From positions 21,142,001 to 21,206,000 of the forward strand of contig OZ024762.1 of the NCBI GenBank assembly GCA_964016885.1: a stretch of 64,000 bases of DNA, given 5' to 3'. Positions 10,437 through 62,959 of the stretch are shown in pieces. Every line of letters starts with the position of its first letter. Positions within the stretch are counted from its first letter, which is position 1. The notes below the pieces were generated by a model. It saw only the letters and a list, made by a program, of their open reading frames with translations, searched no databases and was not told the origin of the DNA. The stretch comes from Eledone cirrhosa. Its lineage: Eukaryota. The translations under genes and the position numbers were made by a program.

Positions 10437-10584
10437 TAATATATATGAGTAATATATATGATGAAACAGATACCAACACATCTGTATTTATATTGCAAAA
10501 GAAAATTAGCCAGAATGAAGAATATTAATTATTTTACTACAGTTCGTCCACATCGATTTAAAATAATAAATCGACAAAAATATA

Positions 10585-11018
10585 TATATTAATAAGAGGA
10601 ATTCTAACTTTGTCTGATTTACTCGTTTTATTTACAATCCTTTAAAATATATATAATATGGTATTATAATGAAATAGTATGATAGAATATTAAATTCTAA
10701 GTGTTAATTGAACAAGTACTTTCATGCTTTCGCAATCTTCAGGTTCATGATATGTGGTGACAGTCGAGTTTGCAATTTTCAACTGCAAACTGCAAAAAAT
10801 TGCAAACTCGACTGTCACCACATATCATGAACCTGAAGATTGCGAAAGCATGAAAGTACTTGTTCAATTAACACTTAGAATTTAATATTCTATCATACTA
10901 TTTCATTATAATACCATATTATATATATTTTAAAGGATTGTAAATAAAACGAGTAAATCAGACAAAGTTGGAATTCCTCTTATTAATATAATCTTCTATA
11001 CACAATCATACACACCCG
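10585..11018 (+). mobile_element. Fold-back element family P1 (195-bp arms, 16-nt loop, one-sided tail), Penelope-like
   Basis: Near-perfect palindrome 10585-10779 / 10796-10990 with a hammerhead motif in each arm; second copy at 62550-62959. Confidence 0.8.
10828..10866 (+). ncRNA. Minimal type-I hammerhead ribozyme motif (mirror copy 10709-10747 on -)
   Basis: UGAAC-CUGAAGA-U UGC GAAA GCA U-GAAA-GUAC-UU-GUUCA: stem I 5 bp, GNRA-capped stem II, palindromic AGUACU stem III. Confidence 0.7.
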
Positions 11019-11042
11019 TGTATATTTACCTATCTATATCTA

Positions 11043-11073
<31 letters not shown>

Positions 11074-14000
11074 ATGTATGAATGTGTGTTATAAGAGAGG
11101 TGGTGAAAGATTCATTTCTTTACTGATCATTGCCTTTCTCCCTTTCCTTCCCCTAAACCTTTTCCTTACTTTGGTTATTAAGTTTTTTTCCCTCTTTCTT
11201 TTTCTTTTTGTTATTGCAAACATTATATAACCGAATTGAAATTTGTCGAATAAATAAAAGTCCTTTTATCATGTAGGTGATGGGACACCTACCCTGAAAA
11301 AAAAAAAATGTACGTAATGTAAACAAAGACACGCCGCAAGTAAACACACATTCACTTCTGTGTGTGTGTGTGTGTATATATGTGTAAATAATATCCCTTA
11401 TTTTTAAATTGTTTGAGGTTTTATATATCCCCAGGGTACGGTGTTCTATCAACCCGTCAGTGATATATATATATAAAGTATTCTATATATATGTTTACTT
11501 CTCTGAATAAGATATCTTAATCTCCTTTCATTGAGATGTTATGTATATCCACGACGAATTTTCTCCGAAGCCGAGAATGATTCGGTTTCATAAATAGAAT
11601 ATTAGTCTACGACTCCATTTATACCGTGTATTTCTTCTCATCTCTCCACACAACGACATATTATCTTCGTTTTTTCCGTTCATTGCCAGGGAACGTCTCC
11701 ACCAACCAAAGTATCGTCTTTCTGTTTTCCTTCGGTTGCAATGTTTTTCGAAATATTTACTTCTGCGTTCACATTGATTTTTTTTTTAGTTTCAGAAGAT
11801 CCCGTTAAGGGTGAAAGCAGCGATTCTTTGCTTAAACTTTAATCTGTTATTTTAATAAATATTTGCTCTTGGGTTCTTATATATTTGATATATATTTATC
11901 CTTATCAAGCCCTCTTTCCAGCAAAGAGTTACGCCTCTTTATGGTCTGAGTTCAAATCCCGTCGAGGTTAACTTTGCCTTTCATCCTTACGGGGTCGATA
12001 AAAATAAAGTACCAGTAATGCACTGGGGATAATTGCTGGCCTTGTACCAATAGTAGAAACAATTATTATTACTATATATATATATATAAGAACGAAGTGG
12101 AGATGTTACATAGAAGATTTATTGTTATATTTGGGGAGGGTCATATTGTTATATTGCCAGAAATAATAATAGAACACGTGTTTCGGCACATACTGGGTTC
12201 GATTTAATCGACTAAATTACTTTGTCCTTGTCAATTATATTTAATGTATCACTTCATCATTTGTATTTAATGTTAGAAATGATATAAGTGTATGATTTCT
12301 ATCATTTTCTAACATTAAATTGTTTATGGTTCGAGGGATATATCGTTGCTATTGCTAGCATTGTTGAAGACACTAGAAAAGGTCATTCCACAGGTGTTTC
12401 GAGCTGTTTACAAGACTGTTTGATTTGAGGGAGATTTTGATGTTATTTTTAGTATTTGAATATGTGCCTCATAAAATATATATTTAAAAAAAATCAAAGT
12501 TACCAAAATTGATTGATAACATACATTTGATGAAGAAATAAACACACACATTTATGTATGTGTGCGTGCGTGCGTTTTGGTATAACTGTATGTATGTATA
12601 AATATGTGTGTACGTGTGTTTCTAGTATGTATGCGTACCATAATAAAGAATTTGTGCTTCACGTTTAATGAGCGATTTTAAATACAGAAATGACAATTTT
12701 ATAATAAAAAAAATCGGCAACCCTTATGGCATCGTTTAGGGGGCAGCTACCCCTCTCGGTATAGCGTCGTTGACGACGTGGTGGCTTGTCCCCTTTGTAG
12801 TGTCGCCTCTATACAAGATGGCTTGCTGCTATGTACCAAGGTAAAAGTGATGACTTGGTAGTGAGGGTAACCATACCTTGCTTTCTGTATAATTAAACGT
12901 GTGTTTGTCTTTGTTTATGTAGCGTAAAATAGCAGATATCGAAAAAAATATGTATTGGCGTCAATTTAATCGACTAAATCATTTTAAAACAAAAATAACA
13001 GAAACAAAGCGAAGAGGCAGTACAAAGTGTTAATATTTGTGTGTGTGTTTGTAAAGAATGGGTGAGATTCACTTATCCCTATCGTCTACAACATTATGTA
13101 TGTGTATGTCCACACAGGAGTCGCCTTGCTTCTCCATGTATAACTGTGTACGTGTGTGTGTGTGTGTGTAATGGACCGCCGTCGGTTTCGATGATGCCTG
13201 TTCCTGTAAGTGACTGGGCATTCCAGTTTGTACTGTTAACATCGTTCTCAGGGAGATGCATATATATATATATATAGTGTGAGTATGCATGTACATGTAT
13301 ACAGAAGGGGGCCAATTTTGTGATACACTCTGACGCACAGAATCTCCCTGAGAACTACGTTAAAAGTGCACTTATCTGGAATGATCAGTCACTCCAGGTT
13401 TATGTATTATGTATTTCTTTACTTTCGGAGAAGTAAAGAGATAGATATAAAAGAAGAATCGACCCTAGTTCGCAGATACAAACAATTTTTTACACCCAAT
13501 TTTATGATTAAAGCCAGGCGGAGTTATCGTTCTTGAGATTTCACCCTGAAAATTTTCGAGGAACTGATGTCGCTAACTTGGTCATTGTTTCTACTGTTGC
13601 ATCATGGGTAATTAATTGATAAATCGATCAATTTTTTTTTTTAAAGATGAAGTTTTTAAATTTATTTCACATATATCTCTTTTTACTTAACTGTTAAATA
13701 TTTGGGACTTCAGAATTTATCGTAGTCAAATTTAAACACACTGAAATACATACTCTTTTGCCCGTTCCAGTCATCCGGCTGAGACCATGCTGGGGCACCA
13801 TATATATATATATAAAAAAATTTTGGAATTTATTTTAGCAATAACCCTTTTTTATTTAGAGTACTAAAAAAAAATGTGGGCTCGTAGTTTATTGTAGTCG
13901 ATTAGAAAGGCTCACATAGCTACAACAAACATACAGACATGCACGTCGTCTGCTTTCAACCAATTTTCGTAACTTTTTTCTTCTCATAAAACACAACGTT

Positions 14001-15142: not shown

Positions 15143-16413
15143 TCAACGTTTAACGTCCGTGTTCCACGCTTGCATGGGTTTGGACGGGGGTAGTCCCACT
15201 TGAGGCAAGAGTGATTGTCTTGCTCGCATAGGACTGTCTGGCAGGTTTTCTACAGTTGGATGCCCTTCCTAACACCAACCACATTTACAGTGTGGGTCTG
15301 GGAGGTTTTTACCGTGTTGCCTACACGGCCACATTACAGCGTGGACTGTGTGTTTTTTTGTCGTGACACCTACACGATCTCATTTGTTTCGGCCTGGATG
15401 GCGCGGCACCAACATAACTTTACATAGAACGGGGTGGTGTGGATAGGGTGGGGGTGGTGGCGGGACGGGGTGTAGTTTGTTAGAGATGCCTACTGGCAAG
15501 GCGGGTCTTCTCTGTTACTGAGTACCGCCAAAGGTCACGGTCCAGTGACATTGTCTTGGAGAGGTGTAAGTGTGTGAGGTCGGAGTTTATCAGCTCATCC
15601 CATGTTTTTCTAGGTCTGCCTATTCCGTGGCTACCGTCTATCTTTATTGCCCTGCACTTTGTAATACAGCTATCGACTTTCATGCGCATCACGTGTCCAT
15701 ACCAACGCAGCCTTCTCTCGAGTAAACAACATCTGATCCCTCTTATCTCTAATTTTTTCCTTAGTTCGTTTATGCTTTGCCGTTCACGTATATTACTGTT
15801 ACACATCCAGCGGAGCATGCAAGCTTCGTTCCTCTCTAGTCTGCGTATATCCTCTGCACACAATGCCCAGGTCTCACTACCATGCAACATTGCTGTTCGT
15901 ATGCAGGCATCGTACAACCTGCCTTTCATTTTTAGGGAGAACCCTTTAGCAGCTAATAGTGGTATAAGCTCTCTGAACTTTTTCCAACCAGTTCTGACTC
16001 TAGCTACAGTACTTTCAGAGCACCCTCCCCCACTGCTGATTTTATCGCCCAGGTAACGGAAGCTGTCCACTATTTCTATAGAACTCTCTGCGCAATTGAA
16101 AGAGCTAGTATTTTGTGGGCACTTGCTGCTACTTATTGCACCAGAACACCGGCCACATGTAAAGTCTATGTTCTTAGTTAGCTTACCTGTGATCCCACTA
16201 CATCTTTTATGCACCCATACTTTGCATTTAGGACATAAGATGGAGTTTCTACCTACGCCTTTCCTACATACCGAGCACGACCATTTCCCAGAAGGGACCG
16301 CCGCCTTGTTTTCTTTCCTACAAACTAGTACTTTGGTCTTAGCCAGGTTAATTTTAAGTCCTTTTGACTCTAGGCCGTGCTTCCATGTTTGGAATTTCTT
16401 CTCTAGCTCGGCC

Positions 16414-16415
<2 letters not shown>
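15140..16415 (-). mobile_element. Second, shorter copy of the same RTE LINE
   Basis: Near-identical to ~40910-42182 (311-aa ORF differs at ~1 residue); flanked by (TA)n. Confidence 0.93.
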
Positions 16416-16455
<40 letters not shown>

Positions 16456-17720: not shown

Positions 17721-57607
<39,887 letters not shown>

Positions 57608-61432: not shown

Positions 61433-61833
61433 TGTAGGAGGTGAGTTTTATTGTAGTACAATAAAGCAATGCAGATATCGGATAAGAAGCACTCTACAGT
61501 TTGTAGGACTGGAGTATACATAATATAAGATCAAAAGATGGTTAAAGGAGTTCCATGTATTTTATTATGCGCATTTCAAAAACAAACATCATCATGCAAT
61601 AATATTTGTGTTTTCATCAGATAAAACAGGAGAACATGATATGAAGGCTAAAAAACACTTGTGGATAGTGCAGTTTTAAATCAACATATGCACTATCCAC
61701 AAGTGTTTTTTAGCCTTCATATCATGTTCTCCTGTTTTATCTGATGAAAACACAAATATTATTGCATGATGATGTTTGTTTTTGAAATGCGCATAATAAA
61801 ATACATGGAACTCCTTTAACCATCTTTTGATCT

Positions 61834-61840
<7 letters not shown>
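61433..61840 (-). mobile_element. Fold-back element family P2 (152-bp perfect arms, 16-nt loop, ~88-bp one-sided tail)
   Basis: 61521-61672 / 61689-61840 are reverse complements; flanked by (TA)n; internally deleted copy at 4683-4854. Confidence 0.8.
61733..61803 (+). ncRNA. Type-I hammerhead ribozyme motif (mirror copy 61558-61628 on -)
   Basis: UGUUUUAU-CUGAUGA-AAACACAAAUA..UGUUUGUUUUU-GAAA-UGCGCA-UA-AUAAAAUA; palindromic stem III. Confidence 0.78.
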
Positions 61841-61885
<45 letters not shown>

Positions 61886-61932
61886 TATTTAATTATACAA
61901 GAAATAACACACTATAATTACGTCCAGTACGC

Positions 61933-61998
61933 TCATCTGATGAGCGTACTGGACGTTTCTGTTAGAATCGTCTAGTTTCCTGAAACCTTTGGTAATGA
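61933..61998 (+). ncRNA. Imperfect type-I hammerhead motif inside a partly deleted fold-back (family P4, ~61885-62033)
   Basis: UCAU-CUGAUGA-long stem II (ACUGGACG/CGUCUAGU)-GAAA-CC UUU GG-UA-AUGA; base of stem II mismatched. Confidence 0.5.
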
Positions 61999-62549
61999 AA
62001 TAATTATATTGTGTTGTTTATTATGTAATTAAATTGCTCTGTACTATATATAGAGCACTCTTCTTTCCTCTACCTGTACACACACACATATATATATCGA
62101 AATAAGAGTGGTATATCATAAGAAAAGAGAAGGAACTATGATATAAAATGTTAGATGCCTTAGACAAAGCGAAGTGTGCTCAATGCTTAAAGATGCAAAA
62201 TTAAATATTATACTGGAGTTAATATTTAAGGAGAATTTGTGTACAGGATAAGCAGAACGGGTATATGCAGAAATATATATATATATATATCGAGTACTCT
62301 GGTGCGTTATGGTCCACCTGGTTCCTTACCACACTTCCTTCGTTATATATATATATTTGGTGAGGGCGCGTGGCTAAGTGTTTAGAGAATTGGATTCTCA
62401 ATTGTGAGGTTATGTCTTTATTTCACGTTGCTCCTTCTACCTAGAGTTGCGACCGATAGATAGTATTAGCAATTGGAAAGACAAATGGAAGCATTGTTTC
62501 CTCGGTTCGATTTGACCAAAGTCGTTCGACTGTTATATATATATATATA

Positions 62550-62959
62550 TATATTAATAAGAGGAATTCCAACTTTGTCTGATTTACTCGTTTTATTTAC
62601 AATCCTTTAAAATTTATAATGGTATTATAATGAAATAGTATGATAGAATATTAAATGTTAAGTGTTAATTGAACAAGTACTTTCATGCTTTCGCAATCTT
62701 CAGGTTCATAATATGCGGTGACAGTCAAGTTTGCAATTTTCAACTGTTGAAAATTGCAAACTTGACTGTCACCACACATTATGAACCTGAAGATTGCGAA
62801 AGCATGAAAGTACTTGTTCAATTAACACTTAACATTCTATCATACTATTTCATTATACCATTATAAATGTTAAAGGATTATAAATAAAACGAGTAAATCA
62901 GACAAAGTTGGAATTCCTCTTATTAATATAATCTTCTATACACAAACATACACACCCGT
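62550..62959 (+). mobile_element. Fold-back element family P1, second copy (1-nt loop at 62745)
   Basis: Same arms and tail as 10585-11018. Confidence 0.8.
62782..62820 (+). ncRNA. Minimal type-I hammerhead motif (mirror copy 62670-62708 on -)
   Basis: Identical to 10828-10866. Confidence 0.7.

Follow-up and report, generated by a model that had tools for sequence, protein, structure and literature searches.

Penelope-like retroelements (PLEs) are usually inserted as head-to-head copies of their pseudo-LTR (pLTR), one of them tailed, within (TA)n sequence, as set out in Craig et al. 2021 (PMC8557442) and Arkhipova et al. 2013 (PMC3846280). Minimal hammerhead motifs with a palindromic helix III and weak, dimer-dependent activity sit in PLE pLTRs according to Cervera and De la Pena 2014 (PMC4209133), who also describe dual hammerheads in Schistosoma, located on opposite strands and 100–700 bp apart. 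The protein of PAc (Poseidon of Anolis) cuts and extends both strands in vitro and has two internal reverse transcription (RT) starts that bound the tail, and the RNA-seq described in the same study gave no ends at the hammerhead cut site (Frangieh et al. 2024, PMC11167929). For cleavage, the PAc ribozyme needed protein. Both the inverted repeats and one-sided tails of PLEs and the cutting of minimal hammerheads in vivo are treated as open questions where these four sources discuss them.

In this study, we analysed a window of 64,000 nt of the Eledone cirrhosa contig OZ024762.1 (21,142,001–21,206,000, forward strand), together with family members of a palindrome that begins at its position 10585. 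Judged by its sequence, this palindrome is a pair of head-to-head pLTR copies, one of them tailed, in (TA)n, and is the stub of a young, high-copy Penelope-like element; the layout is already known for PLEs and the structure is ordinary. We consider it probable that it is a young PLE insertion formed when a (TA)n target was cut and each of its strands served as primer for reverse transcription close to the 5' end of the element RNA, with both copies running off its capped start. Searches of the open literature turned up neither this family nor any account of PLE palindromes as cap-ended or twin-primed.

The palindrome and its parent element

An inverted-repeat search confirmed the palindrome with 195-bp arms that the first-pass annotation had described, with arms at 10585–10779 and 10796–10990 (195 nt each, 99% complementary) and a 16 nt spacer. 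The single arm mismatch claimed there was found at 10605 versus 10970, the non-family base being on the left arm, and the 39-nt hammerhead motif that had been spelled out for each arm was located at 10828–10866 (plus strand) and 10709–10747 (minus strand). The left arm extends further, to 10785 (201 nt), and is followed by a 10-nt filler built from short copies of arm sequence. The tail, described as unique and on the right only, is indeed one-sided but is unique only within the locus, being shared by all 30 family loci compared, and it continues beyond 11018 to ~11041, at which point it passes into (TA)n. With (TA)n at both borders, a target-site duplication is unreadable at this palindrome. 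The features are given below in element numbering, in which +1 is the A where arms end (window equivalent 10789).

10581..10590, no strand: short (TA)n at the left border, overlapping the arm end; likely target remnant
10585..10785, minus strand: left, tailless arm; inverted element positions +202 to +2 of the Penelope-like pLTR
10709..10747, minus strand: minimal type I hammerhead motif of the left arm, mirror of the right-arm motif
10786..10795, no strand: junction filler of 10 nt, readable from its sequence as two short copies of arm +14 to +20
10796..10990, plus strand: right arm, element positions +8 to +202
10828..10866, plus strand: minimal type I hammerhead motif of the right arm (+40 to +78), with cleavage predicted after 10861 (+73)
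10991..11041, plus strand: PLE tail on one side only, +203 to ~+253, which grades into (TA)n; in tandem copy L040 it continues into ORF1
11042..11080, no strand: right-border tract of (TA)n / (TATG)n, likely left over from the target
62545..62959, no strand: second, older palindrome of the same family, 90–95% identical, with the family's commonest junction and the tail on the right

When 10796–11020 was compared with the genome (3.0 Gb searched), all 40 scored candidates, from a total of 425, were 100% identical. The first 30 loci comprised 12 that extend upstream into a long element, 14 short palindromes resembling the one at 10585, two with a short inverted piece and two single arms. Stretches of 7.9–8.0 kb were taken around 11 of the 12 long loci, the 11 being chosen by hand. 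The long loci contain a 4,204-bp unit composed of the pLTR, the tail, a 449-aa ORF1 and an overlapping ORF2 of ~775 aa, and L040 is a tandem copy with a period of 4,204 bp, whose tail runs straight into ORF1. No credible match to ORF1 was found in Pfam. The 775-aa ORF2 of L041 matched GIY-YIG at 28.9 bits (above the cutoff) and RVT_1 with an E of 3e-6 (below the curated cutoff), and by eye ORF2 has DKG, YLDD, a CX4CxxC linker before a C-terminal GIY-YIG, and a CCHH pattern. Inverted copies were present in seven of the 11 large loci, and a one-sided tail in 13 of 15 palindromes picked by pattern and in all seven simple two-armed long insertions. A 24-mer of the hammerhead had 6,367 exact genome matches versus none for its reversed control, which is not chance, and a 24-mer across the upstream edge of the pLTR had 1,350; therefore, most copies are stubs.

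Like the EN+ PLE insertions described in PMC8557442 and PMC3846280, those of this family have an inverted head-to-head copy and a tail at one end. The likeness extends to partial tandems (L040), (TA)n targets, an RT with C-terminal GIY-YIG, and TATA/Inr sequences in the pLTR region. Unlike the printed examples, the arms here are often both pLTR-only and stop at one base, and the tail is ~50–65 nt compared with 30–40 in those elements. The element appears to be Neptune-type, an assignment made from motifs read against the description in PMC8557442. It shares with the Neptune clade, as described there, the CX4CxxC linker, a CxxC in GIY-YIG with two downstream His, the DKG motif and a preference for (TA)n, but differs in its upstream 449-aa ORF1, which overlaps ORF2 at a slippery heptamer. 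That overlap, at U-UUU-UUA, was observed in five of five copies examined (L040:4162-4180, L035, L038, L039 and L041). The heptamer suggests a putative −1 ribosomal frameshift; RNA structure prediction gave no strong structure downstream of the slippery site. According to the legend of Fig. 1 in PMC8557442, some PLE types may have a frameshifted ORF1. The octopus rows that we found in the metadata of that paper are of Naiad and Hydra families only.

Arm ends, junctions and the origin of the palindrome

With 17-nt exact anchors, 278 palindromes centre within +1 to +13, and none do so in the reversed control; control intervals at +30 to +44 and +86 to +100, with 14-nt anchors, gave seven and 15. 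Among the +1 junctions listed, which cover the first contigs only, the genomic −1 base was reached by an arm in none of 50 loci (hand count), and in a set of 109 loci with both arms complete it was carried by one of the 100 arms listed (hand count). An exception is L005, one of the 30 loci, in which two bases of genomic sequence precede +1. Where one base fills the gap between two complete arms, it is G-C in 19 of 19 cases, the genomic −1 being T-A (P 2e-6 at 50:50). In L040 and other long copies a TATA box is located at −31 with CCAAT boxes further upstream, an older copy has its TATA at −29, and the full-length copy L038 starts at +1. Reverse transcriptases add C opposite the m7G cap, and they can also add untemplated C at any template end; the G-C filler therefore marks an end, not strictly a cap. 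We infer that +1 is probably the capped start of the element RNA. The 10585 locus has a filler junction and a right arm that starts at +8, so the evidence on the cap and on annealing comes from its sister copies.

The lengths of the arms bear on whether one cDNA or two was involved. In 13 of the 15 pattern-picked palindromes one arm reaches ~+202 and the other +246 or further, and none is two-tailed. The 11 large loci comprise seven simple two-armed insertions, three with a single arm in the stretch examined, and one that is complex; in five of the seven (L035, L036, L038, L039 and L041) the tailless arm is the longer. Since a tailless arm cannot template a tail, nor a short arm a longer one, two RNA-templated cDNAs are needed. 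The commonest short junction (16 of 50, hand count) fits two +1-ending cDNAs paired across five bases around a central T-T mismatch, which is seen resolved both ways among the junctions; the other 34 are of other types. This commonest junction recurs on different subfamilies, and within any one palindrome the variants of one arm are also found in the other (L047, L049, L051, L052, L055 and the window copy at 62545). Together these observations fit repeated formation from what would be one source RNA per event, although the shared variants could instead reflect conversion after insertion. In a separate observation, L038 (G000:C3:178256000-178263900) is joined to its tailed arm via a short extra inverted piece, −45 to +194.

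In the origin that we consider probable, the GIY-YIG endonuclease would nick both strands within the (TA)n target. One 3' end would prime at UAUA near +200 and give rise to the tailless arm, and the other would prime in the (UA)n tract at ~+253 to +269 and give rise to the tailed arm. Each cDNA would stop at the RNA 5' end, sometimes with a C added opposite the cap, and the two cDNA ends would be joined by annealing, as in the commonest junction, or by a short filler, as at the 10585 locus. Long copies would arise when a read-through RNA is primed at the equivalent two sites of its downstream repeat, and in the element RNA the hammerhead would likely cut a minority of templates only. As in PAc, two internal RT start sites would bound the tail, and the targets are AT-rich; cutting and extension of both strands was seen in PAc and we infer it here, and the RT start sites reported for PAc lie inside the ORF, whereas those here would lie upstream of ORF1 (PMC11167929).

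The main rival to a two-cDNA origin is self-priming, in which the inverted arm would come from one cDNA or antisense template that folds back and copies itself. PMC3846280 put it forward for rotifer Penelope elements on the basis of palindromes found where inverted copies meet, whereas the junctions here favour two cDNAs. The arms do share variants, including a ~29 nt deletion in both arms of L051, and the filler at the 10585 locus is templated from nearby arm sequence, as self-priming would have it. However, the longer tailless arm, opposite a tailed arm with sequence that the other lacks, in five of seven long two-armed insertions is difficult to reconcile with it, and fold-back would need a loop of 1 nt both for the 19 junctions with a 1-nt filler and for the 16 of 50 overlapping ones; we regard self-priming as unlikely. 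Far less credible is that the palindrome is copied as a unit in its own right, whether as a non-autonomous element (MITE-like or retrozyme-like) or as a purpose-built double ribozyme. Hundreds of similar palindromes, two of them within the window, and a junction type common to 16 of 50 would agree with such a unit, but 34 of 50 junctions differ and the shared one is found on different subfamily backgrounds. In addition, its two motifs lie on opposite strands, a read-through hairpin would bury them, and its units are not arranged as in non-LTR retrozymes, which are head-to-tail tandem units each with a type I hammerhead (bioRxiv 10.64898/2026.07.22.740005), but as a head-to-head pair.

The +1 boundary could also be something other than a capped start, for example an RNA end fixed by splicing or processing, or a structure at which the RT stops. 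A pyrimidine tract closed by CAG runs from −20 to +4, with every base unchanged in an older copy, the sequence over +1 to +4 reads as a splice acceptor, and introns in PLE pLTRs are described in PMC4209133 and PMC8557442. Against a splice site, the arms of 109 palindromes retain the four bases through the AG, which splicing would have removed, and the TATA spacing of −31/−29 is retained across subfamilies, a full-length copy begins at +1, and extra G-C is found at junctions; a boundary other than a capped start is thus rather improbable. As for the palindrome being an assembly or library fold-back artefact, near-perfect palindromes are generally known as a sequencing artefact, but the arm mismatch, one-sided tail and filler junction at the locus, the centre that is fixed family-wide, and an older diverged copy within the same window leave almost no room for it. 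Among contigs of four runs aligned to the locus none spans the palindrome, and the family is very abundant in them.

The hammerhead motif and ends near its predicted cut

The motif contains the core CUGANGA and GAAA-N...UH plus helices I and II. Its minimum free energy fold when taken alone (−4.2 kcal/mol) has a 5 bp stem I and a 3 bp stem II with a GAAA loop. A U-U lies under stem II, where the G10.1-C11.1 pair closing helix II is absent; this pair is highly conserved according to PMC4209133. The CUU triplet ends at 10861, after which the cut is predicted, and the self-complementary AGUACU occupies the place of helix III. The earlier classification stands: the motif is a minimal hammerhead of type I that departs from the canonical form at the base of stem II. 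Like the minimal hammerheads described in PMC4209133, the motif has the full core, a 5 bp helix I, a palindromic helix III region and an extra base before helix II. As in the Schistosoma hammerheads described there, the motifs occur in pairs on opposite strands, although helix II is 7–8 bp in those families compared with 3 bp here. An Rfam scan of the window at E<=1 gave no hammerhead family match. A mir-6302 match from Rfam at 10746–10829 was rejected, being far under the gathering score and reflecting the hairpin.

In a cofold of two motif copies (−16.4 kcal/mol), an intermolecular helix formed at AGUACU, this being a predicted structure and not necessarily the active fold. The previous expectation that the monomer is unlikely to work, with pairing possible through AGUACU, agrees with this model and with the class as characterized in PMC4209133. 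The reading of the locus as a pair of ribozymes was correct on motif class but left out the identity of the palindrome as the stub of a Penelope-like retroelement. RNA that reads through the 10585 palindrome is predicted to form a 199-pair hairpin (−312 kcal/mol) burying both motifs. Because the motifs are on opposite strands, there can be no dimer within one transcript of this palindrome, and the opposite strands together with the hairpin mean that no hammerhead function is expected at the locus; on these folds the hammerhead there is likely inert. In a full unit, the copy that lies 4.2 kb downstream in the same orientation would be its natural partner for dimer formation, and the hammerhead is the usual pLTR passenger.

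A check of whether core positions are more conserved than their flanks, which the first-pass annotation had proposed, was carried out on one young-old pair of copies. Identity was 37/39 for the hammerhead versus 151/162 for the remaining pLTR and tail, by which the proposal is neither borne out nor refuted. The upstream promoter region of the same pair was identical at 92/120 positions, and the one real hammerhead change converts a U-A pair of helix II to U-G. As a further observation, the ~29 nt deletion in L051 starts from the hammerhead 3' end and is common to both arms.

In the element RNA, the motif lies 40–78 nt from the start, and one unit further on there is a second copy in the same orientation. 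Because the arms pass through the motif to +1, most templates had evidently not been cut by the time they were copied. In an interval ending at +75, 35 palindromes have their centre, compared with seven and 15 in the control intervals at +30 to +44 and +86 to +100; the AGTACT palindrome itself can explain seven of the 35. These counts and those that follow use two control intervals only and are sensitive to local microhomology. Counted by hand, arms ending at +73 to +76 made up 44 of 70, versus 14 of 44 at the same anchor distance in the controls (Fisher P 0.002), and 11 arms end exactly at +74, both arms doing so in three loci. Asymmetric junctions in which a +1 arm is joined to an arm near the cut site numbered 20, versus six for the control anchor, and the 10 that were checked were all true inverted pairs.

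The pile-up at the predicted cut is a hint of ribozyme cleavage of the element RNA, and could instead reflect an RT pause at stem I. It sets this family apart from PAc as its RNA-seq is reported in PMC11167929, in that genomic ends here pile up weakly at the cut site. Possibly, the palindromes form an archive of Penelope RNA 5' ends, most being pairs of strong-stop cDNAs from the capped start and a minority coming from hammerhead-cut RNA, a reading that we put forward tentatively, at slightly less than even. If true, the archive would be evidence for cleavage by a PLE minimal hammerhead (39 nt, 3-bp helix II) in an animal, and for twin priming on both target strands as the mode of PLE integration. 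The family gives base-level predictions, namely an RNA start at +1, a cut after +73, and reverse transcription primed close to +200 and +260. Being young, with RT-endonuclease copies that are almost intact and junctions in the hundreds, it is valuable as a test case.

A second palindrome family and other features of the window

A palindrome of a second family is located at 61435–61846 of the window, with 158-nt arms, a left tail and a hammerhead-like core. In a pattern search, a 21-mer of this family had ~12,400 genome matches at <=1 mismatch, and 726 palindromes were found in which both arms reach one base, with the same one-sided tail, so that the pattern of the first family recurs. Its long copies L063 and L064 encode an endonuclease that by eye resembles the Hydra clade. 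A TATA-like run is present at ~−50, and the genomic −1 is C; therefore, single-base fillers in this family do not discriminate. A third hammerhead-like stub, at 61920–61990, is a short palindrome centred on a CTGATGA core that adjoins a (TA)n run.

The minus strand of the window at ~17880–51300 contains what we take to be DNA polymerase theta-like exons, with helicase and family A polymerase motifs. The palindrome at 10585 is ~7 kb beyond the last motif exon found of this gene. An RT ORF of a non-LTR retrotransposon is also on the minus strand, in two near-identical copies at 41247–43379 (710 aa) and 15480–16454 (a 324-aa fragment), and there are many shorter remnants of the same ORF. In addition, tRNA-like matches just under the Rfam cutoff occur in a dispersed repeat at 18036–18093, 22970–23027 and 27424–27481, and this repeat is probably a tRNA-derived SINE.
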